In this document: piece after piece, positions 2,971 through 53,242 of the stretch
Position numbering within the stretch: the first letter of the stretch is position 1
Layout: each line of letters opens with the position of its first letter
Source of the DNA: an uncultured Hormoscilla sp.
GTDB taxonomy: Bacteria; Cyanobacteriota; Cyanobacteriia; Cyanobacteriales; Desertifilaceae
DNA length: 64,000 nt
Assembly (NCBI GenBank): GCA_963921275.4
Contig: OZ001293.3
Location: forward strand, 320,001-384,000
Direction: 5' to 3'
Notes under the pieces: model-generated
What the model was told of the DNA's origin: nothing
The model's database searches: none
The model's input: only the letters and a program-made list of their open reading frames with translations
Position numbers and translations under genes: made by a program

Positions 2971-5524
2971 TCAATGGGGTATCCGCCGCACAGCTAGCAG
3001 GGTAATGTCGTCAAACTGATCGGCTGCCCCAGCATGTTCTAGCACAGCTTCTGAGATTTGTTCTAGCAAGGTAGTGACAGAAGGGACAGGCTGCTCTAAC
3101 ATTGACAGCAATCCTTTGGTCGTGAAAAACTCGCCCCCAGCAGCCCGGGCCTCCGGAACGCCGTCGGTGTAACCTAACAGGGTCTGTGCGATTCGTTCTA
3201 GCCTAACGTGGTCAAACACGGAACGCTAGCCCGGTTTCATTAGCCGGGAACTCTGACCGCATGGGGGTTAAATTCCCCTCCCCCCAGGTACGGGGGTGAC
3301 ACCGGTCCTCGGTGCTACGAAGCGACATCATCGTGGTGCTAAGCGAGGACTCAAATGTAGGATAACTGGCAGCCTAAGCCGGTGACGCCGCTAGGAAAGA
3401 TATCCAAGGTTAGAGCAGGCAAACATGTGCAAGCCTCGTTATAAGGAACCAGCGAAATAAGGCTATATGCGCTGGCCTAAAAAGGAAATGGTAGCTAGTA
3501 TTAGTTTTAGACTCTGGCTAATATAGTACTCAAATAGCTCCCGGGGTATAGTGTGGACCTAAAGGTATCGCGAAATGTTGTTAGGGAACGAAGTAACCTC
3601 TCGTGTGCTGTCCATCAGGACAAGTTAGATGTTAAGCGCAAGCCACGGGGGGAGGGATGGCCCAAGAAGCGAATGCCCGGGGTAATTCCTGGGATAACAT
3701 CTACAGTAATGTAGATGATGCTGGGTAGCCAGCGCTGACGTGGGTCGGTGATACTAGGAAGCTGCTGGAATGAGTAATCCTAAAAAGCCACGGAACTAAT
3801 CCGAAACGCAAGTGGAGGATAAGGTATGGATAACTGGTAAAACTGACTTGAAAATGGTGATACTAACGGTTATCAGAACAACCACTCGCTAAACCAGGAA
3901 AGGGAAGAAAAGACAGGCGGCAAGGGCTAACGGAAGTAATTCCTATTAAGTCTACCTATGAAAAGGGCCTAGTACCCAGTAGCCGGATGCGGTGAAAATC
4001 GCAAGTCCGGTTCCTCAAGGGAGGGTCGGGAAGCGATTCCCGACTCGACCCCATCCCGCCCGGTTCTAAGCGAGTCTGCTGAACCTTAAATTTCAGGTCG
4101 GGCAACATTCCCACCGCTGGTCCGGTAGATTTAAGCCGCTGTTTCACCCCTCCATTCGGGTTGACGATAAATAGATCCTCGTGTCCGCCATTAATGTAGG
4201 TGAGCAAACCGGTCGCTGGGTCCAACACACCAAAGAAGAGGGTGGCAAACATACCCAGTTCGCCGTGATTTTCAGCGATGTAGTTATTGGTCACCTTCAC
4301 AGCTTGCAAGGCATTCAGGTGAGCTAAGTTAATTGATTTCGACTCTCCAATCCAGCCGTCAGCAGGACTATTCGTCTCCAGAATACCTGATGCATTTCCT
4401 TTCAGTCGGATTTGATGAGAAAAGATCCGGATTAAGCTACGGAACAGACCCATAAACAGTGCTGCACCTACCCCTTTGTCGCAGACATCCGCAATCACTA
4501 AGCCCACATATTCATCAATCTCGAAGCTGTCGTAGAAGTCCCCTGCTACTTGACGTGCTGGTTTGAAAAAGGCGGCGATTTCCCAACCCGGTTTTTGCAT
4601 CACTTGAACCGGTTTTTCAATCACATGCACCGGCAGAAAGTTGGTCTGCATCTCCCGACCTTTGCCTAATTCTTCGTTGAGCTTTTGCGAATATTCTTCA
4701 ACTTTATTTAAGCTCCCTTGTAGGGCCGCTTCCGCCTGCTTGCGATCGCTGATTGCCTCGGTGATTTGAGCGAACATTTGATTGAAGGCAGAAATCACAT
4801 CTCCCAACTCATCTTGGCGTTGCACTGAAGCTGAGTAAAAATCTGGCGGTTCTGCGTCTTTGCCGATCGCTTCCCCCGCCCCAATCAAGTCATTTCTCAG
4901 ACGGATAATCGGAGTAATCGCGATCGGGTCTAAGGCGATCCAAGTTCCCGCCGTGACCACAACCGAGATAATCAGCACCAGACCAGCAATCCGTAAAATA
5001 AAAGCCTTTAACTCTGGCTTGACAGAACTCGTATCGTGACGCAGAATTAAAGTGTAACCCCCCTGCATCATCTCCGGTGTCCATACCGCTTCATAGCGCT
5101 CGCCATTTTGGCTCCGGAAATCCCTTACCGACTTACTATTGACATCATCAAATGACACTTCCGGTTCTTCACCAAAGGTACCCACTAGGGTACTATCCGA
5201 CTTGTAAAGCGCCCCTCCTATAATTTTATGTTGAAGCTTCCAGATCGGATTGATCGGATCCAGATCCTGAAGTTTTTTGACCTCTTTGAGGAATTCGTCA
5301 TCATACATTTGCGGTTGGATTACCTGCTTAATTACCGCCACCTTGCCTGCTGACACCTCCTGTATTTGCGATATAAACTCTTTTTCTCGTCTCAATACTG
5401 AAGGAATCAGCAGAATTGCTTCGATCGCCATCACACTGGTAAACACCCAGAACACCACCTTCCTTGACAACCGGCTTGTGGGCAGTTTGAAACCACCTTT
5501 AGCTTCAGCAGACATAACTTTCAT
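2971..5524 (-). pseudogene. PP2C/SpoIIE (RsbU-like) phosphatase with sensor and HAMP, interrupted by an antisense group II intron
   Basis: VAGDFYD, IADVCDKG, YTDG and DDIT motifs; removing 3186-4056 restores RLEPG-E-TLLGYTDG in frame. Confidence 0.9.
3186..4056 (+). ncRNA. ORF-less group II intron (IIB-like), 871 nt
   Basis: 5' GTGCG; domain V AGCCGGATGCGGTGAAAATCGCAAGTCCGGTT at 3981; domain VI hairpin with bulged A; no RT ORF; removal restores the host frame. Confidence 0.93.
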
Positions 5525-5539
5525 AACTTTTTCTCCTAC

Positions 5540-5998
5540 CTACTCGATCTCCTTTTCTTCGGCATTATAGTAGCTAATACTCTGCCGATTCACCACAAAT
5601 ATATTGCGATTGCGGTCTCCCACCCGTTCGTAGATGAACTTATCCACTCCCTCGATCGCCAGATACAGTCCCAAACCCCCGATCGGTCGATCTTCTAAAG
5701 GCTTATTCAACATTTCCTCTTCCACTGTTTCAATCGGGATTAGATCGTAGGCTTCACCTGTATCTTCTATCCAGATATTTAAAGTTTTCTCCTCTATCTT
5801 TGCCTGCAATTCTACATCTCCTTCCATTCCCGCTTCCTCATACCCGTGAGTAATGATATTGGTTGCGATTTCATCTACTGCTAGCCGCAGTTTATAGGAT
5901 GCTTTTTTGTCCAATCCTGCTGATGACGCAGCTGCCATCACGTATTTGGCGATCGCACTTAAAGACTCCAGCTTTCCAGATACTTTCAAACTTTCCAT
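5540..5998 (-). CDS. Anti-sigma factor/serine kinase (RsbW/SpoIIAB-like HATPase)
   Basis: LAVDEIATNIITHGY, EDTG and GGLGLYL motifs. Confidence 0.9.
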   Translation of the reverse strand: MESLKVSGKLESLSAIAKYVMAAASSAGLDKKASYKLRLAVDEIATNIITHGYEEAGMEGDVELQAKIEEKTLNIWIEDTGEAYDLIPIETVEEEMLNKPLEDRPIGGLGLYLAIEGVDKFIYERVGDRNRNIFVVNRQSISYYNAEEKEIE

Positions 5999-6071
5999 AA
6001 GGATCGCCTCCTTTTTAATTCAGACTTTTACCTTAATTTTATGGACTATATCCCCCAAGCATTTGATTCAA

Positions 6072-6269
6072 TTATTGTCTGTAAAATGACCGATAGCGAT
6101 GCACCGCTAGCATGGTAATGTCATCAAACTGTGGCGCCTTATCAATATAAGCAAATAAACTGCTTTTGACGCGCTCCAATAATTCAGATGCTGATGCTGG
6201 CTGAAGAAGAAGTTCGCGCAGTCGCTTGTCAGTAAATAACTTCCCATCAGGGGATTTAGCATCAGTCAC
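6072..6269 (-). pseudogene. C-terminal remnant of a second PP2C/SpoIIE phosphatase
   Basis: VTDAKSPDGKLF...QFDDITML with no recognisable upstream domain. Confidence 0.75.
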
Positions 6270-6523
6270 GTGGGTCAGCGAACCTTTTTTCGCGATCTAA
6301 GAGGCTCAATTCCTCTGCCCCTATCGTTCCATCCACCTGCGAGCAACTATTTATGGCATTTCTCAAAACCCGTGCGCTCTATTGTCAAATCGCTGAAACA
6401 CTTACGCTGTCCGCAATTTACCTCATTTCATCAATCTCAAATCATATCGCATCTATCTGAGAAACGCTATCTGCTTGCTAATTGCTAATTATTCTTCTCC
6501 TTTCTCCTTTCTCCTTATATCAT

Positions 6524-6805
6524 TCAAAAACTTGACTGAATAATACCGCCTTCTACACGTTGGGCAGCACCATTTATCGCTGAAGCATTTGCCGCCGTTC
6601 CTGCAGCTGTTCCCACATCCGCAACGATGCCGACAACTTCACCCTGCTGACTTAGTTCCTTGACTGTCTCCTCTACTGTTTCCGAGAAGCGACCATTGAC
6701 AAATACTTTCGCACCTTCCCGGAGAAAAGCCCTAGCTGTTGCTTTGCCAATTCCTGCTGTTGACTCCGTGACCAGTACGCTTTTTGAAGCCAAACCTAAA
6801 TCCAT
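6524..6805 (-). pseudogene. Short-chain dehydrogenase remnant with internal deletion
   Basis: Rossmann N-terminus (VLVTESTAGIG) joined directly to an SDR C-terminus (ASAINGAAQRVEGG). Confidence 0.8.
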
Positions 6806-6829
6806 AATTTTACCCTCCCTTCGATCTTT

Positions 6830-7171
6830 CTACAGGTTTTCTATCTGTTCCGTGTCATACTCATCTATAATATAAACGCTCCGATCGAAGCCCGTCTTCT
6901 TAATAGTATCCAGCACCATCTCCTGAACCCCTACCAGATATATGTCTACAGATGTCCCCATCTTTTGCTTGGAGAAGATCAGCACCCGCAGACCGGCGCT
7001 GGCCATATACTCTAGGTCTTGCATTAGCAAAACCAGGCGTTGAGGTTTTGCTGCTGCTGCTGCTTCTACCTTCGCCTTGAACGCTGGTGCTGTTGCACCA
7101 TCCAGTTCTCCTGATAAAGTTATTTTCGCGATGCCGCTGCTTGTTGTTTCTAGATTTGCGTCAAAAGCCAT
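6830..7171 (-). CDS. STAS-domain anti-sigma factor antagonist
   Basis: GELD...YMASAGLRVL motif. Confidence 0.92.
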   Translation of the reverse strand: MAFDANLETTSSGIAKITLSGELDGATAPAFKAKVEAAAAAKPQRLVLLMQDLEYMASAGLRVLIFSKQKMGTSVDIYLVGVQEMVLDTIKKTGFDRSVYIIDEYDTEQIENL

Positions 7172-7223
7172 AATCTTCTGCTATTTCTTTTGTTTGTAGT
7201 AAGCGCTTTACCGCTTCTTAGGG

Positions 7224-9344: not shown

Positions 9345-9374
9345 TATCTGTCTTGCTTCTCAATTCTCTCTTCC

Positions 9375-9716
9375 TTAGCTTTTGAGTGCTGTCAACCCTG
9401 CATCTACTGTCTCGCTAATTGTGAAAAAGTCCAGAAATCCCGTTACGGACATGGTGTCTTGCAACTCTTCCGACAGCCCCACCAGTACCAGTTTTCCTTC
9501 TTTCCCTTGGGTCTGCCGGTACATACACAGCAGCATCCGCAAGCCTGCACTGGACATGTACTGCACCTGTTTCATATCCATAAGAATCTTACTCCCGGGC
9601 TCAGCTAGGGGTAAAATTTGCTTTTGCACCTCCGGCGCCGTGCTAGCATCTACGTCACCACTCAGTTCTACTACCTTTATCCCTTCAACTGTCTTAATCT
9701 CGATCTCTATTGCCAT
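9375..9716 (-). CDS. STAS-domain anti-sigma factor antagonist
   Basis: GDVD...YMSSAGLRML; ATG at 9716 chosen because the longer ORF starts inside a tandem repeat. Confidence 0.9.
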   Translation of the reverse strand: MAIEIEIKTVEGIKVVELSGDVDASTAPEVQKQILPLAEPGSKILMDMKQVQYMSSAGLRMLLCMYRQTQGKEGKLVLVGLSEELQDTMSVTGFLDFFTISETVDAGLTALKS

Positions 9717-9770
9717 GATTCTGCGCTTGACTATTACTCTTGCGATCATGGATGAGCCATGACCGCTACT

Positions 9771-9946
9771 GCAAACGGTAAACGCTTTAGCGTTTACTAC
9801 AAACCGCAAACGGCAAACGCTTTAGCGTTTACTACAAACCGCAAACGGCAAACGCTTTAGCGTTTACTACAAACCGCAAACGGCAAACGCTTTAGCGTTT
9901 ACTACAAACCGCAAACGGCAAACGCTTTAGCGTTTACTACAAACCG
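9771..9946. repeat. Tandem repeat, 35-bp unit x5 (AAACGCTTTAGCGTTTACTACAAACCGCAAACGGC)
   Basis: Identical units without spacers; internal palindrome AAACGCTTTAGCGTTT. Confidence 0.95.
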
Positions 9947-12749: not shown

Positions 12750-13028
12750 GGGTGTGGTCAAAACCCGTTGATCGTTCATGGGTCTTCCCAGTCGCCGGAT
12801 CCCCCCAAACCCCCCTGGGTTGGGTGTGGTCAAAAGTAGTTGATAGCCAGGTGCAGGCTCCCGGACCCCCCCGCTGCCCGGATACATGTATATAGCCCGC
12901 GCAGGCGGGCTTTGTTCGTGTAGCCGGGCCCTTTAGGGTGAGGGCTACTCCGTCTCCTACCAACGGGTTTTGACCACACCCCCCTGGGTTTGGGGGGGAT
13001 CCCGTTGCAACTACTTTTGACCACACCC
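12750..13028. mobile_element. MITE, 279 bp, with a 9-bp target duplication
   Basis: TIR GGGTGTGGTCAAAA/TTTTGACCACACCC; GATCTTGCA at 12741-12749 and 13029-13037. Confidence 0.85.
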
Positions 13029-13212
13029 GATCTTGCACCATTCGCAACTAGAGGCGGAGCCTCGATAGCGCGTTCCCAGGCGGAGCCAGGGAACGAGGGT
13101 AAAACGCTTTCTATATAATGCTTTTAGTGGGTTTTAACCCACTTTAGCTATTAGCCGTGGGTTTGAACCCACGGCGGGCCAGGAGACCAATTGAGAATGG
13201 TGCAAGATCTCA
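13029..13212. mobile_element. MITE-like element with TIR AGATCTTGCACCATTC (relatives at about 35396-35460 and 37015-37150)
   Basis: Inverted ends GATCTTGCACCATTC/GAATGGTGCAAGATC; shared internal sequence with the 37 kb copy. Confidence 0.7.
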
Positions 13213-13291
13213 ATTAAAACAGACTCTTGAGATGCTGTTAAACTAATTATAGCATTGTTTTGACAAAATGCTATAATTCAGATTTTTTTCC

Positions 13292-19212: not shown

Positions 19213-20112
19213 TTAATCTTGTTTCAACTTTTGCACCTCCTCAAGGCTGAGTCCTGTCGTTTGACTAATCGTTTCTTCATTTAAAACATCAATCAGTCGC
19301 TTAGCGATTTCCACTTGAGATTCTTTCATTCCAAGTTCGTGACCTTCTTCAAGTCCTAGTTTGCGACCTTCTTCGAGTCCAAGTTCGCGACCAACTTTTT
19401 CCGCCTTTTTCACCGCATTACGCTGGTCATGGATATAGATTTCCCGTTTTTCCAAATCTTCCAATTCTGACGGCTGCATGGTTGCTATACTAGCAATCTC
19501 AAAAGCTTTCTTGATTTCTGGCACTTCCGACATTGTCCCGGGCACTGTTTGCAAAGTCCTGGCACTTTTGAGAAAATAAAGCCATTTATCGGTTATCGTC
19601 TCCAAATTTTCCAATTCTTTCTCAAAGTTTGGCAATTACACAAACACCAACTCAATGTCGTCAACCATATAATCACTCAGAAAGTTCTTGTCTTTCAATA
19701 CCAATTTAGAAATGACATTTTCCCATTCCGTAAACATTTTAAAATCCGTAATCGTCAAAGCTATTACCGGGTTCAGCAGCGTATAATCTTCTCCAGCATC
19801 CAGTTGAATGGAATAAGCTTTAGCCGCATTGTATAAAATCCGCTTCTCAAAACCCTCTACATTCAACACCTGCATCTCGATAATCACTTTTTTGTTATCG
19901 GCCAACTGAGCTTTTACATCCAAGTACGTATCTTTGAGTCCGCGAAGTCGGGGAGCCTGATATGGGTTAATGATGGTCAAATCAGAGATCGTCTCTTTTC
20001 CCTCATAGATGATAGCATTTAAGAAGCTAATCAGAATTTCCTTACTTTGCTCGGAGCCAAAGATTTTCTTAAAGGCGAAATCTGTTTTGGGATTAATAAA
20101 CTTAATCTTCAT
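19213..20112 (-). pseudogene. Rpn/PD-(D/E)XK recombination-promoting nuclease with a premature stop
   Basis: FINPKTDFAFKKIFG and IIEMQ; in-frame TAA at 19636-19638 where FVELP is expected. Confidence 0.9.
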
Positions 20113-21821: not shown

Positions 21822-23555
21822 TTAGCTATTAGCAATACTCTCTTGGAGATTGTAGCTAGAAACTTGCAAGCGAAACATCCGCGCATAGAGACCATCATTG
21901 GCCATCAGTTGAGTGTGGTCTCCCACTTCGACAATGCGACTATTATCTAGCACGACAATGCGATCGGCCAAGAGGACAGTAGAAAAGCGGTGACTGACAA
22001 AGAAAGTCATTTTTCCCTAAGTTAGCTGGCGAAACTTATGAAACAATTGATATTCGGCTAAGGCATCTAAGGCGGCGGTGGGTTCGTCTAAAATGAGGAT
22101 GGGTGCATCTGTCATAAAAGCCCTGGCCATGCCAAATTTTTGCCATTGTCCCCCAGAGAGTTCAACTCCCGATGAGAACATCTTACCCAAAATTGTCTCA
22201 TATCCCCGATCGAGCCCAGCAATTAATTCTTGGGCTCCCCCATCAGCAGCAGCTTGCTGGAGACGAGACATGTTCGAGCGTTCTGGCAGGTTGCCAAAGC
22301 CAATATTATCCTGTACGCTCAGGTGATGGCGGGCAAAATCCTGAAAAATCACATCAATGTTGCGGCACAACTCTTGCAGGTCTAATTCCGACAGGGGAAT
22401 GCCATCCAGAGTGATTTCCCTAGTATCAATCATATAATCGAGTGAGGAGTTTCAGTAAAGCGGTTTTGCCAGCGCCGTTCAATCCTACTAGAGCAATACT
22501 TTCTCCTGGCTGTACGGTTAAGTTCAAATCAACTAGGGTGGGGCTGGTAGATCCGGAATAAGTGAAACTTACATTCCGCAACTCCAGACCTGTTTGCAGG
22601 GGACTGGGAAAAGGTTTGGGACTCTTTGGCGTCACCACGAGGGGCTGCAAGTCCAAGAATTCAAAATACTGACTGACATAGAGATTGGCATCGTAGATGT
22701 TGGCCACATTTTGGAGAATACCAGGAATGAGATTCTGAGCCTGGCCAAAAGCACCTGTATACATAGTGAAGTCTCCGAGGGTAATGGCTCCCATTACGGC
22801 CTGCACTACTGCCCAGATATAAGCTGTGTAAAAGCCCAAGTTAGCAACTATGCCTGCGCCACCGCGAACTGCTGCATACTTGCCTGCCAAAGCAGCTGAT
22901 GTTTGATTAAACTCGGTACGAATGTCGCGCCATTGCCCGAGTAAATATGCTCCCAGGTTAAACAAACGCACTTCTTTAGCATATTCGCCCTGAGTGAGCA
23001 GACGCTGCAAGTAGTCCGCTAGTCTTCCACTCTCGGTTTGAGAACGTAACATCCAGAAGCGCTTGCCAGAAAAAATCACTGCTACCCAGAAAGCTGGGAA
23101 ACCCGTGATTATAAGTATTCCGGCGATCGGGGGACTAAATCTGAGTAGCAAGGTAAGTAAGCTAAACAGGGTAAATATTTGTCCCAAGAGGGTGGTGAGG
23201 GTGCTAACCACTGTGACAGGATAGTAACTGCCACTTTTGCTGGCGCGACTGAGAGCATTATGAAACTCTGATGATTCATAATGAGCTAAATCCAGTTGCA
23301 CTGCTTGTACTAGCAGCACTCCATTGGCATGGAGGGTGAACCTGTCCTTAAATACTTGGGAGACATAGACGTTTACCTGGTTCAGCCCTTCCTGTAGTAG
23401 ACTGAGGCCAAACTTAAACCCACCAGTGTTAGTAAGGGCGTCCAGTCAACCTCTGTCTGTTTTACATTAATCAGAATCTGGTCTATAATCAGCTTGCTGA
23501 CGATCAGTTGCGCTGCTGGCAGCGCGGATCTAATCAGGGCGATCGCTAAAGATAA
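21822..23555 (-). pseudogene. ABC exporter (TMD plus NBD), multiply frameshifted
   Basis: GLNGAGK, LSGGQWQ, ILDEPT and VSHR lie in three separate ORF pieces. Confidence 0.9.
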
Positions 23556-28180: not shown

Positions 28181-28330
28181 TCCGGAAACACTAAAGTGTT
28201 TACTACGAACCCCCGAAGCACTAAAGTGCTTACTACGAACTCCGGAAACACTTTAGTGTTTACTACAAACCCCGGAAAGACTTTAGTGTTTACTACGAAC
28301 TCCGGAAACACTAAAGTGCTTACTACGAAC
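28181..28330. repeat. Tandem repeat, 30-bp unit x5, of the AAGCACTAAAGTGCTTACTACGAAC family
   Basis: Relatives near 7200, 9780, 29315, 32395, 57675, 59670 and 60395. Confidence 0.9.
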
Positions 28331-28352
28331 CAACTAACAAGGTAAAAAGAAA

Positions 28353-29318
28353 ATGATTTCACCGAATCAATTAATTCTTGCCCTCGACTTTGGAGGCACT
28401 AAACACGCAGCCGCGATCGTTCAAAGCGGAGACAGAAAGTGGCAGAAAGGTCGCCGCGTCCTTTCTCCTCCCTTCGCTGGTGCTAGCGTCGATCGCGAAA
28501 TTATGCGATCGCTCATCCACCAGTTGCTGCAAGGAGAAAAACCAGGGGCGATCGGGGTAAGTTTTGGCGGACCAATAGACGCCACCACGGGCACAGTACG
28601 GCTTTCCCATCACGTCCTGGGTTGGAAAAATACTCCTCTGCGGGAACTCTTAGAAACCGAATATGGCGCACCCGTCAGCGTAGACAATGACGCCAATGTA
28701 GCAGCATTAGGAGAATATCGGTTTGGGGCGGGAAAGGGTTACGATAGTATGTTTTATATTACCATCAGTACGGATGTAGGAGGGGGATAGATTCTGAATG
28801 GACGGCCTTGGCGGGGTGCTGATGGCATGGCAGGAAAAATAGGTCATATAGTAGTCGATCCAGAAGGACCAAAATGCTTGTGTGGGAAGCGCGGATGTGT
28901 GGAACGTTTCGCTTCGGGACCATATATTGCCCAAACAGCGCAGCAGTTCTTGCAGCAGCAACCACATCGAGGTGAATTATTGCGGAATTTGGCAGGAAAT
29001 AATTTGTCAGATATAACTGCACAATTAGTCAGTCAAGCGGCAGCCCAAGGAGATAATCTAGCTAGTGAAGTATTAGAAGTAGCAGGATGGGCCCTAGGAG
29101 TAGGGATTGGAAATGTGGCGAATTTGATCAATCCTCAGCTTTTTGTGTTGGGGGGAGGCGTGACGAAAGCAGGGGCAAAGTTTTGGGAAGCAGTGCGTCT
29201 GGTTGCCCGGAAGACTGCTTTACCAGAAGTTAATTTTGAAATTGTTCCTGCTGCTCTGTCAGATGAAGCCCCGCTGTGGGGTGCGGTGGCATTGGCAGAA
29301 GATTTACTTGGTTCGTAG
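28353..29318 (+). pseudogene. ROK family kinase with a premature stop
   Basis: DFGGTK, DNDANVAALGE and CLCGKRGCVE; in-frame TAG at 28788-28790. Confidence 0.9.
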
Positions 29319-30079: not shown

Positions 30080-30951
30080 GGGTGTGTCATCAATCAAATT
30101 GCTTGACAGAAGTAGATGGATACGATATGGAGTCCTTATCCAGCAATAACAATCAAGAGGGCATGATATGAGACGCTATGGCTTGCGAGACGACCAGTGG
30201 GAACGGATCGAACACCTTTTACCTGGTAAAGAGGGTGACCCAGGCGCTACAGCCAAGAACAATAGATTATTCGTGTTCTGCCGTGTTATATCGATATCGT
30301 GCTGGCATTCCCTGGCGGGATTTACCGGAGTGTTTTGGGGATTTTCGGGTTGTTCATACCCGCCATACCCGTTGGTCTGAAAAGGGAGTTTGGAAGCAGG
30401 TATTCGATGTCTTGGCCTCAGACGCCGATAACGAATACGCCGCGATTGATGCCACCATCCTGCGTGCCCATCAACGAGCGTGCGGGTGCAAAAAAAACAC
30501 CCTCAGATACGTGCGAAACCCAAGCCATAGGCCGTAGTAAAGGGGGACTATCGACAAAGATTCATGCCACTTGCGATTGCCCAAGGCAATCCCACAGGAT
30601 TTCATCTTACCCCTGGCCAAGCCCACGACGGGAAAGGCGCTGACGTGCTATTGGATAAAATCGGTGAGATTGGCGCGCTGCTTGCAGATAAAGCCTATGA
30701 TGCGGAACAACGTGTGCTCGAGCGCCTGAAAGAGGCGGATTGGATGGCTGTCATTCCTCCAAAAAGTAACCGCACAGAACACAGAGAATACGATGAAGAA
30801 ATGTACAAGTGGCGGCATCTAATTGAAAATCTATTCCAAAAACTCAAGCAATACAGGGCTCTGGCGACACGCTACGATAAAACGGCTCGCAATTTCTTGG
30901 GTGCCATCTACCTCGCGGCAGCTGTAATATGGCTTAATTGATGACACGCCC
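30080..30951 (+). mobile_element. IS5-family insertion sequence (IS427-like), transposase split across several frames
   Basis: TIR GGGTGTGTCATCAAT/ATTGATGACACGCCC; TA duplication; GRSKGGLSTKIH, ADKAYD and RYDK motifs. Confidence 0.93.
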
Positions 30952-36954: not shown

Positions 36955-37223
36955 AGTTGTCTGAGGTAGTTAATCTGGTGTAATGCGATCGGTATCACTT
37001 GAAAATACATTATACTTACATCTTGCACCGATCGCAACAACCAGCTTTTTCTATAATGTTTTCAGTCGGTTTTAACCGACTTTAGCTATTAGCGGGAGGT
37101 TTTAACCCCCGGCGGGCCATGAGGCTAATCGAGAATGGTGCAATATCTCATTTATAGCATAATTATGCGCTTCTTGAGGTACAGTGAGATCGCCTCTCAA
37201 ATCTTTCCGTTGACTAGATTTTC

Positions 37224-37515: not shown

Positions 37516-37716
37516 CGCCCGATCGCCTCTATCAACCCATTTTGACTACATCATCCATCTTAGCACAGAACCCAAGATTTCGGCAAGCGCTCGAGAATTA
37601 TTCATACCCAGAAACCCGGTTTCTCCAAGAAACGGGTTTCTTAGACTTGATAATAGACATCCAGGTTAGCTATAATCTACAATAGAAGCGATAGTTCAGA
37701 TAGTGAAGAGGTCGAG

Positions 37717-38013
37717 ATGACAAAAACCGCTACTCATAATGTGCTATTGGCACCGGAACAATATGAAACCCTAGCCCAGATGGCCAGTCAAGAAGGTCGC
37801 AGCATTTCCGATCTAGCACAAGAAATGGTGCGCTTAGGGCTAGAAACTCGGGAAAAGCAAAAACAGCACAACTTGAAAATCCTCGATCGTTTAACCCAGC
37901 GGCGCATCAAATACCATCGCCAGCACGGTATGTATCCAGGCGATCTAGTTGCCCAAGTCCGAGCCGAACGGGAAAAACAAATTGACAGGGTAATCAGAGG
38001 TGAACCAGGCTAA
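37717..38013 (+). CDS. Ribbon-helix-helix/antitoxin-like small protein
   Basis: LAQMASQEGRSISDLAQE. Confidence 0.6.
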   Translation: MTKTATHNVLLAPEQYETLAQMASQEGRSISDLAQEMVRLGLETREKQKQHNLKILDRLTQRRIKYHRQHGMYPGDLVAQVRAEREKQIDRVIRGEPG

Positions 38014-38060
38014 CTATAATAGACAAGAGAAGCAAGTGTTCAGATAGTGAAGAAGTCAAG

Positions 38061-38297
38061 ATGACCCCAAAAAATCTAGCACAAGAAATGCTGCGCTTAG
38101 AGCTAGAAACTCGGGAAAAACAAAAACAGCACAACTTGGCAATTCTCGATCGCGTAGCGTGCGCGCAGCGCAATCGTTTGACCCTCCTCCGGGAAGAAAT
38201 ATACCAAACTCACGGTATGTTTCCAGGCGATCTAGTTGTCCAAGTCCGGGCCGAACGGGAAAAACAAATTGACAGAGTAATGAGAGGTGAACCATGA
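38061..38297 (+). pseudogene. Tandem duplicate of 37717-38013 with an N-terminal deletion and a 24-bp insertion
   Basis: Near-identical sequence with RVACAQRN inserted. Confidence 0.75.
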
Positions 38298-40628: not shown

Positions 40629-41048
40629 ATGAGTCATTATCAACAGCAACTGCGAATCAAAACCAGAGGCAAATCCTTTTGCCGCATCACATCTAACCTG
40701 CAAGAAATAGTCACATATTCAGGGATCCAAACGGGACTATGTACCATATTTTTGCGTCACACATCAGCTAGCTTGCTGATCCAAGAAAACGCCGATCCAG
40801 ACATGCTTAAAGACATGGAAAACTTCTTTGCCAAGCTAGTGCCAGAGGATGGCAAAAGCTACATTCACGATACCGAAGGACCGGACGACATGCCTGCCCA
40901 TATTCGCACAGCCCTCACCAAGACATCAGAACAGATCCCCATTCATCAAGGAAAATTGCTGCTAGGAACCTGGCAGGGCATTTACCTTTGGGAGCACCGG
41001 CAGCAGGGGCATTCCCGAGAAATCATCGTTCACATTACAGGCAATTGA
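40629..41048 (+). CDS. yjbQ: YjbQ/UPF0047 family protein
   Basis: HTSASLLIQENADP, MPAHIR and LGTWQG. Confidence 0.9.
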   Translation: MSHYQQQLRIKTRGKSFCRITSNLQEIVTYSGIQTGLCTIFLRHTSASLLIQENADPDMLKDMENFFAKLVPEDGKSYIHDTEGPDDMPAHIRTALTKTSEQIPIHQGKLLLGTWQGIYLWEHRQQGHSREIIVHITGN

Positions 41049-41088
41049 GCTAAAATAATATTCAGAAACACCCCACTAGAGGGGTGAA

Positions 41089-43236
<2,148 letters not shown>

Positions 43237-43296: not shown

Positions 43297-45745
43297 ATGC
43301 AATCTCTAAACCACTTAATTTCTAAATTTTCTGAAAAAGTTCACCTGCGCACCGTCCTGGTCGTACCCTTCGTGCTCCAGATCTGTGCGGCGGTGGGGCT
43401 GACGGGATATCTCTCGATTAAAAAGGGGCAAACAGCCGTCAACGATGTCGCCACCCAACTGCGTAGCGAAATAACCGATCAGGTTGACCAAAAACTGCGC
43501 AGTTACCTAGGGACACGCCCCATCTAGTTAATCAAAGCAACCAAGATGCCATTACAGCCAGGCTGTTGAGTCTGCAAAACAGCAAACCCTGGGAACAGCA
43601 TTTGTCGCAACAAGTGAAATTATTTGATTCCCTGAGTCTGACGGGCCTAGGGACGGAGCAAGGGGAATTCATCACCGCCGAAAAAGTAACTGATGGTAAA
43701 CTGGTGCGGCAAATAGCGGGTAAGTATACAGATTTAGAACGTCAAAATCAAGATTATCGAGCCACATTATTAACCAAAAACTACGACCCGCGCAGCCAAG
43801 ATTGGTATAAAACAGCTGTCAAGGCAGGGAAACCGACTTGGAGTGCAATTTTTTCCCATTTGGTAGAACCGGAGCTACTGATGGTTGCGGTGCAACCTGT
43901 ATACGACCAACAGGGAAAGTTAGAGGGAGTTCTAGCCAGTAGTATCAGTATATCAGAAATTGGCGAGTTTCTGGAAACTATCAAGGTGGGGAAATCAGGG
44001 CAAACTTTTATTATCGATCAGGCGGGCATGTCGGTAGCCACCTCCACGAGGGAAAAGCCCTTCGCCTTCAATAGACAAGGGCAACGGCTGCAAGCAGATC
44101 GAAGTAGTGACCCCTTAACGAGAGAGACAGCTAAATATTTGCAGACAAGGTTGCCGCAAATTCAAAGTAGGCAGCTCTTAGAATATAATATTCAGGGGCA
44201 GAGGCAATTTTTACAAGTAATGCCACTGCAAGATAGCTTTGGTTTAGACTGGCTGATTGTAGTGGTAGTCCCAGAAGCAGACTTCATGGAGCTTCTCAAC
44301 GCTAACACCCGCACTACCATCGGGCTATGTCTGGCGGCCTTGGTGCTAGCTTACGCCCTAGGCATGGGGACATCTCGCTGGGTGGTCAGGCCGATCCTGC
44401 GCTTAAACATAGTGGTAAGGGCGATCGCCAAAGGTGAATGGGGCAAAAAGTAGATGTGCAATGGCCCGACGAACTAGGGGGAACTAGCTAGGTCATTCGG
44501 TTCAATGGCCGCACAGCTGCAAGAGTCCTTTGCCACCCTAGAGGCTAAAAATCAAGAGTTGCAACGCTTCGACTAGCTCAAAGATGAATTTTTAGCAAAT
44601 ACCTCCCACGAACTCCGCACCCCCCCTGAATGGCATGATCGGCATTGCTGAGTCAATGATTGACGGTGCCGCCGGACATGTATCGGTACTGCAAATGAGA
44701 AATCTATTAATGATCGCTCAAAGCGGAGCAAGACTTGTCAACCTAGTCAGCGACCTCCTGGACTTCTCCAAACTGAAGCTCTAAAAAGTTGAACTCCAAC
44801 TCAAGCCAGTGGGAATCCGAGAATTCGCCGAGGCCGTGGTTTCTCTCAGCCAATTTCTGGTTGGCAACAAAGATTTGCGGCTAATTGACGCTATTCTTGA
44901 GGAGCTATCTCTAGTATATACCGATGAAAATCGCCTGCAACAGATTCTACACAATCTAGTTGGCAATGCCATCAAGTTCACTAATGGCGGCATGGTGGAA
45001 ATCTCAACCAAGATTATTCACGGTTCATCCTTCATTGTTGATGGCAGTGCCAGATCGACCCTCGACAACGAACAATTAGCAATTTCTGTGTCCGATACTG
45101 GCATCGGCGTCCTCAAGGATAAATTAGACCGCATCTTTGAATCTTTTGAACAAGCGGACGGTTCCACAGCCCGCGATGTGGCACAGGTTTAGGGTTTAGC
45201 AATTACCAAACAGCTAGTGGAATTGCACGGGGGAGAAATTCGCGTCTCCTCGATAGTGGGCGAGGGCACCCGGTTTACCTTTACCCTACCATTAGCCCCA
45301 GGCAGAGCCCCGAGAACAAGTGATCGCTCCGCCACCCTTACCGATCCTGCGGTCGTCAATTGGCGTGAAAGCATAATGCACGGCCAAGCACAAAGCAACA
45401 ATCAACAATTAACAGTCAACGGTCAACAGCCTCACCAGTTCAAAATCCTGATAGTTGATGATGAGCCAGTGAATCTTCAGGTACTGGTCAACCATCTTTC
45501 CCTAGAAAATTAGGCGTTGCACAATCACGGGATGATGGGTCTCTTTGCATAAGTCTTAAACGTAGACTATAAGCCACTTTCAGTTATGTGCAAACAATGA
45601 CATCATCCCCAAAATGTGCAACGCCGAAAATTATAGTCTCGCCCTGGCCGAGAATGGCATAGATGCTTTATCAATGTTATCCACCGGTGAAAATTGGCAT
45701 TGGCATCAATACAGGTTCTCTGATGCTGGGGACGATCGGGGGACA
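43297..45745 (+). pseudogene. Hybrid sensor histidine kinase (Cache-HAMP-HisKA-HATPase-REC) with an adenylate cyclase fragment
   Basis: [36 protein letters not shown] and KIGIGINTGSLMLG, broken by stops, frameshifts and a MITE. Confidence 0.88.
45513..45625. mobile_element. MITE, 113 bp, with an 8-bp target duplication
   Basis: TIR GGCGTTGCACA/TGTGCAACGCC; GAAAATTA on both sides; removal restores NHLSLENYSLAL. Confidence 0.9.
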
Positions 45746-46220: not shown

Positions 46221-46729
46221 CGAATACCATGTCAGTTGTTAGTTGTCAGTTGTCAGGATCACGGTACTCGATGTGCTCTGCGCGCTCGATGTCCCCGGGG
46301 AGCGCGCAGAGCACATCGTATTCGCACTACGCATCGCACATCGCCTCGTCACTCGGCCTGGTAGGTGCTCACTGATAACTGCTCACAGGTCACTGGTCAG
46401 CAGTGCAGTCTGCTCATATCCGGTTTGGCCTCCGGAGTTGGCGGCGATGTCTCCTGTGTGCCGAGTCCCCTGGGACAAGAGCAAGGAATCGAAGATCCCC
46501 GATCGATTTTGAGTTGCGTGGCCGTTTTGCCCTTAACTTTGACCCCAGAACTGGCAGCATTAGATCGAGTCTGCTTGCAGACTTCCTGTCCAGAGGCGGG
46601 AACACCACCAAAAGGCGACTTTGGTGCTATTTCCGGGTTTTGGCACTCCAGATGCCACTGGACATGCTCCCATAATTCATCCTTCTTATTGACCTTGATT
46701 TTAATCATTACCCTGCTTCCCTTGACACC

Positions 46730-47969
46730 AAGGTTGTCAGGGACGATCGTCTATGTGAAGAAGGTAAATGGCCGCGAGCTGCGAACGGGGGATTTTGTGA
46801 GAAAAGGGGACCTGCTAGCCCAGGTAGACCCTCGCAAACTGGCTTCGGATGTGACGGTGGCCCAGGCCCAGCGGCAGGATGCCCAGCAGCGGTTGAGTAC
46901 GGCCCTGGCTTCTTTAAGGCAGTCGGAGTCGGCGGTGAGTCAGGCCCAAGCTGAAAAAGCAAGAGCGGAAGCTTCTTTAGCGTCTGCCCAAGCGGACTTG
47001 AAAAGAGCTGAAGCTAATCGCGATTTCGCCCAGACCGATGTTAACCGCTACCAGAAACTTTGGGAAGACGGCGTCGTATCGAAGAGCGAGCGGGACACCA
47101 GAGAAACCCAGTTTGCGGAAGCTCAAGCGGCGGTTGAAGCTGCACGAGCGCAGGTGAAAGCGGCAGCTGCTGGAATAAGGGCAGCGTCGAGCGCTGTCTC
47201 TTCAGTTCAGGCGGCAGTCTTATCCCAACAGGCCCAGGTAGAATCAGCGCAGTCGGGAATTAAATCGGCGATCGCCTCCCTGAACAAAACCCAAGTCATC
47301 CTGGAAGACACGGAGATAGTCGCCCCTTTTGACGGCATTATCGCCCATCTCAACATCAAAGAAGGGGACTATTGGATGCCCCAGGTCATCAACGTCGGAG
47401 GGGACTATCAGCAGATGGTAGAGTCGGTGCCGATAATTGCGATCGACCCGAGTGAGTTTGAGGTAAATGTAGAATTGCCAGCTTTCGATGGTGCTAGGGT
47501 CAGAACGGGTCAACGCGCTTTCATTATTGCCAATGAACGGCTGCACAACCCTGATGCTATGACTGGCTCAGATCTGATTAATTTGGCTAGTGCTGAAGGG
47601 ATTGTGTTCTCTGTCAGTCCTTCGGTGACTCCAGGAGAACGGGCGATCGAGATAAAAATCAGGGTAAATAAAGGCGCCCAAAACCTGAAGAATGGGGCTC
47701 GCGTTTCTACTTGGATCGCCGTAGCAGAAAAGCCGAACGCTACAACGGCTCCTTTCAGTGCTTTTCTCTGGAGGGACCAAGTACCACATGTATTCGTAGT
47801 TAATCAACAAGAGGGAATAGTAGAACAGCGCCGGATAAAAACGGGCATTCGTGGGAACTCCCAACGGGAAATAATCGATGGCGTTCAACCAGGCGAACTG
47901 GTTGTGATTGAGGGAAAAAATCGTCTCGTGGATGGAACACCAGTGGAGGTGATTGAAATAGTTGAATAG
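46730..47969 (+). pseudogene. RND efflux periplasmic adaptor (HlyD/MFP); normal N-terminus not found
   Basis: SGTIVYV...GDFVRKGDLLA, coiled coil and IVAPFDGII; upstream in-frame sequence is repeat-rich with no signal anchor. Confidence 0.7.
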
Positions 47970-49433
47970 GCGAATTGAGCAATTGAGAATTTAGAATCTG
48001 GAGAGTGCGAAGTTCTCCTGAAAAACGACCTAGTATAAAGAGGGCAAGGGTATAATGGGGGTTTCGGACTCCGCGCCCCAATCACCAAGGCTAGAATGCG
48101 GGTTGCAGCCGTACTCCTAAAATTGTCCGGACTGTTGCAATTGGCTATGAAGAATTAGCAATGAACAATTAGCAATGAACAATGAACGAAGAACATGATG
48201 TTACAGATGTAAGCAAAGCATCCCCGATCGCCAAGTTCTTTTTACTGAATACGGTTTTTGCCATTCTCATGTGCGTCCTACTGGTAATTGGAAAGCTGAT
48301 CGGGGCGGCGACAATAGTGAAAGAAGGCAACCCTGATATCGATCAAACCTTCGCTAGCGTGACGACCATTTGGCCAGGTGCAGATCCAGAAACGATCGAA
48401 AACCAGGTCACGGACAAGCTAGAGAAAGAACTCAAATCCCTCAAGGGACTCAAAAAACTCAGTAGTGCTTCCTTCGATGGCAGTTCGCTCATTATTATCG
48501 AATTCCGCGCCGAAGCACCTGTGGCAGAGTCGATCGCCCTGGTGAGAGCAGAAGTAGATGAAAGCGCAGCAGAGTTAGATTTGTCCTCGGACGCCTCTCA
48601 GCCCAAAGTCGAGCAAATCTCCGCCCAAGACACCCCCGTACTCAGCCTAAGCCTGTTTGGCAATATCGACCAGGCAGTCCTAAGTCGCGCTACAGAAGAC
48701 ATCGAAGAACTGTTAGAAAAAGTCCCCAACGTCAGAAAGGTTGACCTGAGTGGCGATCGCAAAAAAGTGATCCACGTGCAGCTGCTGCCCGATCGCCTCC
48801 TGACTCTCAATATTTCTCCCACTCAGGTGAGAAATGCGATCGCCAGTAGCAACCGAGACCTACCCTAAGACGAAGTAGAGAGAGACCAAATAGGCACCCA
48901 AGTGCATTATTACGGTCGGTTTAGAACCGAAGCAGACCTGCGCAGTTTACCCGTCACCCGCCTAGGGAAGGGCAGAGAGAAGAATAGTGTATCTGTCAGA
49001 AATAGCAAAAGAGCGTCGCGACCTAGAACGAGAACAGACTCGCGCTTTTATTAGTGGTAAAAGAGAAGAATTTGAACCAGTAACTAGCGTAGATGTAGTC
49101 AAGATACCGAGTTCGGACACAATTAAAATGATTAATAATTGCCTAGGGGCGATCAAGCAGGCCAGACAAAATCCCTCAACCCGGCCCTACAGGATAAAAT
49201 ACAAAATCGTCAGCACAGAAGCAGATATTATTAACCAGCAACTGCAGTCTCCATTCAAAAACGCTTGGCAAAGAGTCCTGGCAGTTTTTATCGTATAACT
49301 GTTAGCCCTCAGCTGGCGCGAAGCCATCATCGCTGGGTTGTCTACCCTCCTCTTTATGGGGGCGATCGCCGTCCCTTGGATATTCAGTAACACACTGAAC
49401 AAGATAGTACAAGAGAGTCTGATCCTCGCCCTC

Positions 49434-51314
49434 AGCTGGAGTCGAGCCCATAATCACCTCCCAACCCTCCCTTTCGGAAACATGCATGCAACTCTCACCG
49501 CACACAGCTACCGAGTAGATAGCCCTTGTCCTAAGTAGAATTACTCAGGATTACCCCCCTCATTCCTTTCCTCATGCAATTTCACCCCTTATGGTTAGTC
49601 TCAGACTACATATATGCCCAACCCCGGAAAATTCGCGGGGGATAACAGAACCAACCCATATCATCCGCTCCTTACCAACATTTACCTAACTTATCAGGTT
49701 CTCCAAGTCTTACCCAGTCAAATCTTTAGCCCAACATTCATTACCTAGGATTTCACCTGGACTATAACATTAAAGTTACCTTCACCCCAAGACTCTATCC
49801 ATCACCGACCCACGTCAGCATATCCATAGGAGTTACCCCAGGCGTTCGCCTCTTGGGCCATCTCTCATCTCATAGCCCGCACCTTACATCTAACCCGTCC
49901 AAACAAAAACAGCCCATAAAAAATTACCTCGTTCCCCGATCTCATCTCACGATATCCTTAGACCCTCACCTTACCCCCGCAACTCTTCAAGCACAATAGT
50001 CAAAATCCACAACCAACACTAACCACCTTCCCCTTTTGAGCCAGCACATAAAACCTTACTTCGCTGGTTCTACATTACGAAGCTTACACGAGTTTGTTTC
50101 CTCTGATCTTAGACATCTTTCCTAGCGGCGTCACTGACTTAGGCTATCAGCTACCCTACATTTAAGTCCTCGCTTAGCACCGCGACGATTTGGCTCCGCA
50201 GCACCTCACGCGGTTACCCCATACCTAAGAAAAAGTCGGGGTCGAGCTGTCCCTCGCGGGACAACCCTCCCTTTCGGAACCGTGCATGCGACTTTCACCG
50301 CACACGGCTACTGGGTACTAGGCCCCTTTCACGGGTAGGATTACTAGGGATTACTCCCATTATCCCTTACTACTTGCACGTCCGCCCCTTTCCTGGTTGG
50401 TGAGTGGAGCTGCCGGATAACCTTTAGTATCACCATTTAACACTCCGTTTTACCAGTTAAACATTCCTCAATCCTCAACTCGCTTTCGCTAACGCTGTAA
50501 ATGGGCTTATGACATTTTAGAGCTACTTGTACCAATAGTTTACTAGTATCACCGACCCGCGTCTGCGTATCCATAGGCATTACCGGCGTCTTCCGCATGC
50601 TCTTGTCCTGAAGGACTTTGGCGTCTTCCGCACACTCTTGTCCTGAAGGACTCGGTGTGCTCCAGACACCAAGGCATGCTCCAGACACCGCCTAGGCATT
50701 AGCTTCTCGGGCCATCTCTCCCCTCATGGGCATGCGCTATGCGCTGCGCGCACGCTACGCGGACGCACATCTGACTTGTCCAAATGAGGACAGCACCACG
50801 AGGGTTACTTCGTTCCTCTCGCTGAGGTTACTTCGTTCCCTGATATCATTTCACGATGCCTTTAGGCCCCTACTTTTCCCCGGCAGTTATTTGGGTACAA
50901 TGTTAGCCAATTCCCTAATTAACACTAACTGCATTAACTTTTGTTCCAGCGCATTAAGCCTTATTTCGCTGGTTGAGTTTAACGAGGTTTACATAGGTTC
51001 GCTTGTTCTAGCCATGGACATCTTTCCTAGCAGAGTCACCGGCTTGGGCTGCCAGTTATCCTACATTTGAGTCCTCGCTTGGCACCACGATGATGTTACT
51101 TCGCAGCACCTCACGCGGTTATCCCTGTACCTGGGGAGGGGGAATTAAACCCCCATGATTACCAGAGTTCCTAGTTTCCTAGGCCAGCGTTCCGTATATG
51201 ACTACGTTAGGCTGGAACTCATCGCACGGGAATTTAACCCCATGAGTACCAGAGTTCCTAGTTTCCTAGGCTAGCGTTCCGTATTTGACCACGTTAGGCT
51301 AGAACTCATCGCAC
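49434..51314 (-). ncRNA. ORF-less group II intron copy D (parts 51314-51228 and 50233-49434; 3' part degenerate)
   Basis: GTGCGATGAG start at 51314; degenerate domain V near 49475-49511; removal restores the host frame. Confidence 0.88.
50234..51227 (-). ncRNA. ORF-less group II intron copy E nested in D (twintron), 994 nt
   Basis: GTGCGATGAG at 51227; domain V AGCCGTGTGCGGTGAAAGTCGCATGCACGGTT; ends CTCGACCCCGACT. Confidence 0.92.
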
Positions 51315-53242
51315 GGACTCCTTGTAGATGTATTCATTCTGATGATGGAAGGGATGCACGAGGGGATTTTCGTTAAAGGTCTGTCTTTCGAGCAAGCTGC
51401 CTTGAAAACTTTTAAAACCTACGCAGTGCCAGCATTGTCCGGTCAGCTAACCACGATCCTGGCAATGGCACCATTGATGGCAATTAGCGGCACCCTGGGC
51501 AAATTTATCCGCTTGATTCCCATTAGTGCGATTACTTGCTTGCTGCTCAGCTACGCGATCGCCCTCTTAGTAGATATCCCTCTCTCCCGCTACCTCCTTG
51601 CTAATGTCAAAGGCGGCGCAAAAAAGACTTTCATTGACAAACTTACAGAAGTCGCTTCCGAGAAGTTTCTGCATTGGAGTTTGCGATCGACTGTCCGCAA
51701 CAAAACTACTGCCCGCTTTTGGACTATGGGGGCGATCGCCCTATTTGTTGGCACCACTATTCTGGTGGGAAACGTACCAGGGACTCTGTTTCCCGACTCC
51801 GACCAACTCAAATTGAGCATCAACATCGAAATGCCCCCCACTACTACTCTCGACAGTTCCCAGATCCTAGCAGATGAAGTGGGGGAAATTCTGCGGAGCA
51901 AGGATTACTTGGAGACGGTAGTCAAATTCGTCGGTCAGCGGAGTAAACTAGTAGGAGAAAGCGGCATCAAACCCAACACTGGCAATTACCTAGTGGGCTT
52001 TTCGGTAAGGTTTGTACCTAAAGAAGACCGCGAAAAATTCTCATTTGAATATATCGACCCGCTGCGGTCCGAGTTAACCCAGGCATTACGCAACTATCCA
52101 GGGGCATCTCTCGTGGTAAATTTAGATGCTGTAGGAGAAGGGGGAGACCCGATCTCCATTGAGCTCACGGGCAGCGACATGGACGAGTTGCGCCGCATTT
52201 CTGGGAACGTGCAGCTAGCTTTGCGACAGATTCCGGGAACAGCAGATGTCCGCGACGACTTAGGTCCGGAACGACCGGACGTGAAACTCCTTCCCCGCCG
52301 GGAAGCGATGAATTTCTATGGCATTACTCCAGAAGATTTCGCCCTCCAGGGGCGCTACCTGATGACTGATAACGATATCGGCGATTTCCCGATCGGAGGC
52401 AGACAGGAAGACTTGGAAATTCACCTCAGTACGAGATGGCAGTCCCGTGGTGGAGCAGTTGGCGGACCCACCCGCATAGACGAACTGGTAACGACTCGTT
52501 TCTTCTCCCCAGACGGGGCAATTGCCGCTACCCAAGTAATCGATATCGTGTCCGATCAGGCACCTTTGTCAATTACCCACCAGGATGCTCAGCGCACGGT
52601 CACCGTTTTGGCGAAGACCAAAGATCGCACAGTCGGGGAGATATTAGCAGATTTGGAACCGCAGCTACAGGAAATGCAGCGCCGCTGGCCGGGAGGCTAT
52701 GACTACAAATTCGGCGGAGAAGCGGAAAGCCAAAGCGAGACTTTTGGTTCGGCGGGACGGATGGCATATGTTGCGCTGTTCCTAGTCTTTGCCGTCCTAG
52801 TGATTCAATTTGGTTCTTTCACCCAGCCCTTTATCATTATGCTGGCTATCCCCTTCGCTTTGATCGGCACTTTTGGCGGCTTCTTTCTGTTCTGGATCCC
52901 GATATCTTTCCCGGCGGTAATTGGGATTATAGCCTTAACAGGAATTGTGGTTAATGATTCAATTGTCATGGTAGAAACGATGAATGCTTATCGCCAGCGA
53001 GGCATGAACCTGCGTGAAGCTGCTGCACGTGGGGCTGCCGATCGCCTCCGTCCTGTCCTGACTACCAGTATTACCACGATCGCGGGTGTGCTTCCCTTGG
53101 CCCTGAACGATCCGGTCTGGTTTCCCCTCTGCATGGCGATCGTCTTTGGGTTGATGGCCTCAACTGCGATCTCTCTTTTAGTCGTGCCCTGTTTGTATCT
53201 CCAATTGACTCCCAGTCATAGCTAATTGTCGATCGCTAATCG

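Follow-up and report, generated by a model that had tools for sequence, protein, structure and literature searches.

An ORF-less group II intron family with insertions into sibling copies in an uncultured Hormoscilla sp.

Here, we analysed 64,000 nucleotides (nt) of DNA from an uncultured Hormoscilla sp. (NCBI GenBank assembly GCA_963921275.4, contig OZ001293.3, positions 320,001 to 384,000 of the forward strand), hereafter called the window and numbered from its first letter. The DNA contains 45 HIP1 octamers at 48% G+C and is cyanobacterial. We found that the window harbours six copies (I1, A, B, C, D and E) of one family of group II introns without an open reading frame (ORF), located at three loci. 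The interpretation we favour, with a probability of about 85% and judged from sequence analysis, is that the copies are group IIB introns of the chloroplast-like lineage that rely on a reverse transcriptase (RT)/maturase made elsewhere, choose their targets by base pairing and have inserted into their own siblings.

In the mechanism that we propose, the copies would be ribozyme-only retroelements, whose splicing and mobility depend on an RT/maturase encoded elsewhere in the genome. The intron RNA would select its DNA target by base pairing through three exon-binding sites (EBS), namely EBS1 in the terminal loop of subdomain ID, EBS2 and EBS2a, and subfamilies with different sets of EBS would have entered sites matching them. 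Two of the five insertions would have hit sibling copies: E a site that is conserved in every copy, and B the antisense strand of the EBS1 loop of A. We infer that insertion proceeded by RT-dependent retrohoming or retrotransposition, for which the genome would encode a driver RT, and that the introns may be active to the present day.

Identity and arrangement of the six copies

An Rfam scan, proposed along with the original prediction that the window contains ORF-less group II introns, placed five of the six copies above the gathering score (40) of the Intron_gpII family (RF00029), at 44.6–47.9 bits. The matches cover domains V and VI (DV/DVI) of I1 (3978–4049, plus strand, 44.6 bits), B (41409–41486, minus, 46.6 bits), A (42551–42628, plus), C (43158–43235, plus) and E (50235–50312, minus, 47.9 bits); the sixth copy, D, has a degenerate DV/DVI at 49435–49512 (minus) and stays below the threshold with 26 bits. 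The 3' strand of DVI shows a GA bulge in the Rfam alignments, and the bulged branch-point A is a membership feature of these introns. All five copies that possess a 5' end begin with GTGCG, an end of the GUGYG class, at 3186, 41089, 42242 (minus), 51227 (minus) and 51314 (minus). A consensus fold of the four full copies (RNAalifold) contains 195 pairs, 62 of them with a compensatory change, and reveals clear helices in domains I, V and VI, next to a long-range pairing between the 5' end and domain V, which is spurious.

The first locus is occupied by I1 alone, a full-length copy of 868–869 nt on the plus strand (3186–4054, with the 3' end at 4053 or 4054). At the second locus three copies form a cluster. 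Copy B (41408–42242, minus) is complete with 834–835 nt and sits exactly 5' of the EBS1 hexamer of copy A, which it splits in two. The 5' part of A (41089–41407, plus) corresponds to positions 1–321 of B (98.75% identity by blastn). Its 3' part (42243–42629, plus) was mapped onto B and is supported by the Rfam match, a direct repeat (D2) and an inverted repeat (I2); it comprises, in this order, the EBS1 hexamer with B positions 322–335, an internal deletion of about 127 nt (B positions 336–462) and B positions 463/464–835, including DV/DVI. Copy C (42630–43236, plus) begins immediately after the 3' end of A; it is truncated at its 5' end (B positions 229–835) and retains an intact EBS1 loop.

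The third locus is a twintron on the minus strand. Its outer intron, D, consists of a first stretch of 87 nt (51228–51314, detected by nhmmer and blastn), which contains the intron-binding sites (IBS) IBS2 and IBS1 used by E, and of a second stretch from position 88 to the end (49434–50234, detected by nhmmer and by the sub-threshold Rfam match). The inner intron, E (50235–51227, 993 nt, placed by Rfam and alignment), has the same orientation as D and is enlarged by repeat and palindromic inserts totalling about 160 nt. GC-rich palindromes and 35-nt tandem inserts are present in E, e.g. the TRF match at 50585–50652. An apparent 87-nt tandem repeat at 51140–51316 merely reflects the initial 87 nt of D and, after them, those of E.

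Hence, the six copies occupy only three loci, owing to nesting (E in D, B in A) and to C lying directly against A. The copies fall into four subfamilies, namely I1, A/B/C, D and E. Within A/B/C mutual identity is 98.8–100%: relative to B, the 5' part of A has a 2-nt indel and two substitutions, its 3' part no change and C a single substitution. These few differences indicate that A, B and C are separate copies and not one collapsed repeat. No other copies are near-identical by blastn; B is 72.6% identical to I1 and about 71–77% identical to E and D, rising to 83.5% across the first 91 nt. The window yielded no further intron fragments in repeat finding, blastn and nhmmer.

Guide sequences and their exon targets

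According to the original prediction, a hexamer in a homologous loop of each copy pairs with the 6 nt upstream of that copy and is retargeted at each locus. All hexamers named in it are present: AGACTC in I1 (3509–3514, plus), TGCACT in A (42243–42248, plus), B (41916–41921, minus) and C (42723–42728, plus), GGGAAT in E (50910–50915, minus) and GGATTT in D (50003–50008, minus). We scored their pairing with exon positions −6 to −1, the hexanucleotide directly preceding GTGCG in each copy. The hexamers of B and E form six Watson-Crick pairs each, with neither G-U pairs nor mismatches, I1 forms five plus one G-U pair without mismatch, D four plus two G-U pairs without mismatch, and A four plus one G-U pair with one mismatch. 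The predicted pairing was thereby recovered in five of five copies. The hexamer lies in a loop of 8–10 nt closed by a covarying stem: in 14 family sequences 88.9% of the cells of this stem and the neighbouring hairpin are paired, and five of nine helix pairs change on both sides, compared to 19–48% paired cells in slid controls with partners moved by 1–3 columns.

To place these pairings in a larger set, we used relatives from a scan of genome contigs with a 15-nt domain I pattern, which returned at least 111 stretches, mostly chance matches in unrelated phyla; among them blastn found intron similarity at at least 13 loci (labelled L below). Thirteen copies with an intact 5' exon were compared, five from the window and eight relatives (L005, L055a, L071, L111, L026, L079, L012 and L011). 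Left out were L070 (5'-truncated), L055b (5' exon not contiguous), L018 (locus ends before the 5' exon), L028, L085, L093, L097 and L098 (loci too short) and L023 (not an intron). In this set the mean EBS1 score was 5.15 for cognate and 3.24 for non-cognate exons, and none of 100,000 permutations reached the cognate sum. Among the relatives, EBS1 of L079, which contains an ORF, pairs at six of six positions and that of L071 forms five Watson-Crick pairs and one G-U pair. Within the window alone, two of 120 permutations reached the cognate sum; these are the identity and the swap of A and B, which ties because both copies share one loop.

The notion of a hexamer retargeted at each locus holds insofar as the hexamer differs between subfamilies and matches the exons, but it was overstated: the five insertions involve only four guide sets, and in two cases the target is a sibling intron. 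For E, the target lies inside another intron copy (D), which calls for caution. The perfect match of B arises by construction and provides no independent evidence of retargeting, as B sits on the antisense strand of the EBS1 of A.

A second pairing was found for EBS2, a hypervariable 5-mer just 5' of an invariant ACCAGCG hairpin, which pairs with exon positions −13 to −9. It is located at 3442–3446 in I1, 41341–41345 in A, 42656–42660 in C (all plus strand), 41984–41988 in B, 50070–50074 in D and 50975–50979 in E (all minus). Pairing is complete in A (TCTAG with CTAGA, 5/5) and D (TGTAG with CTACA, 5/5); E forms four pairs plus one G-U pair, I1 four of five pairs and B three plus one G-U pair. 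Among the relatives, L071 and L026 pair at five of five positions and L005 at four plus one G-U. The cognate mean over the 13 copies is 3.62 and the non-cognate mean 1.59, again with none of 100,000 permutations reaching the cognate sum; at the fixed register, pairing is poor in four of the 13 (L055a, L111, L079 and L012).

The published group IIB layout includes a 5-bp EBS2-IBS2 pairing and EBS2a two nt upstream of EBS2, paired with exon position −14; this last pair is needed for retrohoming and dispensable for splicing (PMC8643678). In our data EBS2a (3440 in I1) forms a Watson-Crick pair with −14 in four of the five window copies and in ten of all 13, a count reached in 526 of 100,000 permutations. 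The two positions covary, with T-A in most copies, A-T in D and C-G in L005 and L079. The copies thus possess the complete group IIB code for DNA targeting, along with the element of it that is relevant to mobility only. The layout of EBS1, EBS2 and EBS2a is the group IIB recognition scheme (IIB1/IIB2, chloroplast-like lineage). The assignment of the window elements as ORF-less group II introns with the loop hexamer as EBS1, for which the Rfam matches, the covarying stem and the permutations speak, is strengthened by EBS2 and EBS2a, two pairings that had not formed part of the claim.

Might chance account for the complementarity between a variable loop and its flank? Only short hexamers are involved, the scoring admitted G-U pairs and several registers of the 9-nt loop were tried, and both the mismatch of A and the two G-U pairs required by D would suit such an explanation. 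However, the cognate score was not reached in 100,000 permutations for EBS1 and, independently, for EBS2, EBS2a covaries with −14, and L079 pairs at six of six positions. We thus reject chance, to which we assign next to no probability.

Another candidate for EBS2, the GGYYAR motif (3408–3413 in I1 and homologues), was discarded. It fits the exons of I1 and B well, yet A, B and E share it despite their different targets, which marks it as a conserved structural element. As a separate observation, the 5' exons of A (41071–41088) and B (42243–42263, minus) are identical at positions −18 to −12 (CCCCACT). Part of the stretch of B's 5' exon that contains CCCCACT arose through the internal deletion of A; the identity could be due to chance or reflect a distal exon feature read by the RT.

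Insertions, source of the reverse transcriptase and mobility

E is inserted in D at position 87/88 in the same orientation. Its target motif, consisting of IBS2, two nucleotides and IBS1, reads GGGTTNNATTCCC and is found in D at 51228–51240. This motif occurs five times in the window compared to 0.05 occurrences expected by chance, always at the homologous position of an intron copy. It is present in all five copies that keep the region (I1, A, B, E and D) and occupied in D alone. B, by contrast with the sense insertion of E, lies antisense in A, exactly beside the reverse complement of the EBS1 of A: its exon hexamer AGTGCA is the reverse complement of TGCACT. Measured against the uninterrupted loop of C, the insertion is precise, and −14 at this site also pairs with EBS2a of B. 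On the antisense strand, the EBS1 of any copy necessarily constitutes a perfect IBS1, and one of three such antisense-EBS1 sites is occupied. B destroys the guide loop of A and, being antisense, cannot be removed from the transcript of A. In the open-access literature searched, we found no description of an antisense intron-in-intron insertion at EBS1.

The cluster at 41.1–43.2 kb has further peculiarities. The 3' end of A is directly joined to position 229 of another copy, and this junction, like the internal deletion of A, is no simple retrohoming product; the junction could stem from template switching of the RT, recombination or misassembly. One may therefore ask if the whole A/B/C cluster results from DNA-level rearrangement (inverted or tandem duplication, recombination) or from misassembly rather than from intron insertion. 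In favour of this, repeat finding returned inverted repeats of 609 and 373 nt and a direct repeat of 300 nt, all 100% identical, in addition to the deletion in A and the head-to-tail joining of C to its 3' end. On the other hand, B is a complete unit from GTGCG to the 3' end of DVI, it directly adjoins a hexamer reverse-complementary to its own EBS1, with −14 paired to EBS2a, and both A (2-nt indel, two substitutions) and C (one substitution) are distinct from B. We regard a rearrangement or misassembly as unlikely and favour insertion of B into A as an intron.

The nests also permit a more far-reaching proposal, in which each copy would be a target for its own family, offering an E-type homing site in sense and the antisense of its EBS1 as an obligatory perfect IBS1. 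The insertion of B in A would then exemplify a general 'fratricidal' self-targeting that caps proliferation and yields nests in place of spread, and the A-C junction would be a template switch of the driver RT. We consider this proposal quite improbable.

Two insertions interrupt host genes. I1 lies antisense in a gene for a PP2C/SpoIIE-type phosphatase (2974–5524, minus; Pfam SpoIIE), of which profile positions 2–124 are found in 3956–5524 (minus) and 125–191 in 2974–3183 (minus). Excision of 3186–4053 in silico gives an unbroken PP2C frame of 561 amino acids (aa), with no other defect in the gene. The D/E twintron lies antisense in an acrB-like RND transporter gene (48182–53225, plus; Pfam ACR_tran), with profile positions 1–213 in 48182–48868 and 405–1019 in 51342–53225. 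Its frame is continuous when 49434–51314 is removed, and the length of the leftover DNA approximately fits the missing profile positions. Stop codons also occur elsewhere, between 48868 and 49433, and the gene is thus a pseudogene; pieces of 45 and 103 aa left of D had no Pfam match. Continuity at the host-gene junctions was judged from reading frames and from the Pfam profile coordinates of the separate pieces. Since antisense introns cannot be spliced from the host mRNA, both genes are knocked out. At the third site, a UPF0047 gene (40629–41048; assigned by Pfam) in the same orientation as A precedes the A/B/C cluster, with 40 nt between its stop codon and the cluster. A consensus scan detected no terminator at the insertion site of A. 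Just upstream of the 5' end of A, on the intron strand, there is a sigma-70-like promoter match (41029–41056, 10/12), which is a consensus match only.

None of the copies encodes an RT and, as the original prediction had claimed, none is present in the window. Pfam detected no RT in the 71 ORFs searched out of 113 window ORFs of at least 90 aa (the 42 omitted were shorter and overlapping), and the best match of a six-frame tblastn search of the window with the intron RTs of L079 and L018 had an E value of 1.9. The closest relatives among the matches listed are ORF-less introns of Hormoscilla sp. GUM202 and GM7CHS1pb, with 70–82% identity over domain I (L071, L111, L070, L005 and L055/L056). 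They share the layout of EBS1 loop, EBS2 and EBS2a with the window copies; L055 is also a twintron and L070 a 5'-truncated copy. No RT genes were found beside these ORF-less Hormoscilla copies, whose neighbours include a subtilase, an IS1 transposase and an M48 peptidase. Also among the matches listed are ORF-containing relatives from Symploca, Nostoc and a metagenome-assembled genome of the Synechococcales (L018, L026 and L079). In these, domain IV contains a gene for a protein of about 600 aa that combines RVT_N, RVT_1, GIIM and HNH domains, and L079 and L018 have domain I motifs in common with the window introns. In a collection of plasmids, matches were confined to the level of domain V (12 records with a query coverage of 9% or less each).

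Two of the Hormoscilla loci show additional insertions. In GM7CHS1pb, the outer intron of the twintron L055/L056 bears an ORF for an IS1-family transposase on the opposite strand. In GUM202, a palindromic insertion of about 115 nt splits domain V of L071 (within 2230–3276, minus) in the middle; among the matches listed, L071 is the intron closest to those of the window.

Several observations weigh against a family of functional group IIB introns served by an RT from elsewhere. No RT-bearing parent intron was found, the RT search having covered the 64-kb window, and the copies contain no remnant of an RT ORF: tblastn returned E values of 3.8 and 7.6, the first for a match overlapping domain V. 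Only Rfam families of the DV/DVI type match, even at E ≤ 1, and none does so over the 5' three quarters of the introns, a negative that is to be read with the limit that the intron classes covered by the domain I–IV models of Rfam were not checked. The 3' end is ambiguous by one nucleotide and differs between comparisons. A T follows the 3' end of DVI (after GAC; CCCCA in I1) in six of six window copies, whereas L071 carries a C at this position. This T is assigned to the inserted unit both when B is compared with the intact loop of C and by the host-gene frame around D, but to the exon by the host-gene frame around I1; the 3' splice site and the first 3'-exon nucleotide, with which EBS3 would pair, shift accordingly. 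E is mismatched at EBS2a (T opposite G). Domain V of D is degenerate, A is disrupted and C truncated. Finally, four of five E-type sites and two of three antisense-EBS1 sites are empty, so that mobility may be low or extinct.

Could the introns be fossils of past retromobility, now inert after loss or inactivation of the driver RT, with EBS/IBS matches that merely record old insertions? The 72–77% identity between subfamilies would fit, as would the 26 bits of domain V in D, the disruption and deletion of A, the truncation of C, the repeat insertions in E and the mostly empty target sites, and many genes in the window are split (ROK, ABC, PDDEXK_2, DUF1214 and acrB). However, A, B and C differ by 0–4 positions and, apart from I1, the PP2C gene is free of defects, both of which point to recent insertions; moreover, I1, B and E retain domains V and VI above the Rfam threshold. 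We consider the fossil explanation possible, if doubtful. Recent events at A, B and C fit their identity of 98.8–100%. The 'large, recent expansion' that had been proposed goes too far, as there are only three loci and diverged subfamilies: six copies at three loci, about 72–77% identity between subfamilies, and near-identity confined to A, B and C.

Window context and comparison with known systems

Further genes of the window are split as well, namely those for a PDDEXK_2 transposase, an ABC ATPase, a ROK kinase, an IS4/5 transposase and a DUF1214 protein (adjacent ORFs at 19213–20112, 22017–23319, 28353–29318, 30178–30941 and 62184–62744), and the region looks rich in pseudogenes. The cyclase and PP2C genes have paralogous N-terminal regions: 1965–2264 in the adenylate/guanylate cyclase gene (882–2753, minus) and 4727–5026 in the PP2C gene (3956–5524, minus) form a direct repeat of 300 nt with 92% identity. 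Other repeats unrelated to the introns, local duplications as well as dispersed ones, measure 73–131 nt at 80–94% identity (37661–38294; 13106–13236 and 37044–37174; 45513–45585 and 62764–62836). Three intergenic tandem arrays comprise about five units of 35 nt (9771–9946), about five of 30 nt (28182–28331) and about two of 32 nt (60396–60463); the units contain a short palindrome followed by ACTAC(A/G)AAC. At 12893–12916 there is a lone Rfam match to CRISPR-DR28 (36.6 bits at a threshold of 35), which is probably not CRISPR, as it is surrounded by no repeat array and just by short GGGTGTGGTCAAAA-type repeats.

A close known system for comparison is that of Thermosynechococcus elongatus, whose group IIB introns (17 without and 11 with an ORF) fall into six families defined by EBS1–3, and where EBS/IBS pairing is good at most sites, twintrons occur and ORF-less copies are mobilised in trans by driver RTs (Mohr, Ghanem and Lambowitz 2010, PMC2882425). 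The window introns operate like this system and leave the established Thermosynechococcus picture unchanged. Like the ORF-less TeI3, which is paired with the driver TeI4, they are cyanobacterial group IIB introns without ORF, and their biology matches. The position of E in D corresponds to the homing into a conserved site of sibling introns in T. elongatus (PMC2882425), and the protein of L079 has the T. elongatus intron RT 6ME0 as its nearest solved structure (E 1.6e-111).

The differences are second-order and comprise another lineage, missing ORF remnants, antisense gene disruption and antisense EBS1-loop insertion. While TeI3 kept N- and C-terminal remnants of an ORF, none were detected in the window copies. 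Few of the T. elongatus introns lie within genes, whereas two of the three chromosomal sites in the window are in genes, in antisense orientation. Antisense insertion into the EBS1 loop of a sibling, as observed here, is not described in the portions of that article consulted (PMC2882425). The introns of Hormoscilla GUM202 and GM7CHS1pb belong to other genomes and represent distinct insertions.

A survey of filamentous cyanobacteria, Arthrospira platensis among them, reports as many as 101 group II introns in a single genome (Miura et al. 2022, PMC8919778). Many introns of such bacteria are chloroplast-like (CL-type) and ORF-less group II introns; in the portions consulted the survey counts and classifies introns, without a tabulation of EBS or of nesting such as that given here. 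Intron-in-intron arrangements of prokaryotes are also known from Trichodesmium, where a group II twintron is spliced sequentially according to the title of the report (Pfreundt and Hess 2015, PMC4649490), and from Methanosarcina acetivorans (as cited in PMC2882425). In contrast to the sequentially spliced Trichodesmium twintron, B is antisense in A and not removable. On group II introns of Hormoscilla we found no publication in the open-access literature searched.

Taken together, the window provides a second, independent cyanobacterial lineage of compact RT-less group II introns, in which EBS1, EBS2 and EBS2a can be read from natural insertions. It documents a cost for the host, with two genes interrupted in an unspliceable orientation, and records an antisense hit on the guide loop of a sibling. 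Such natural insertions are raw material for studying the targeting rules and the spread of these elements.

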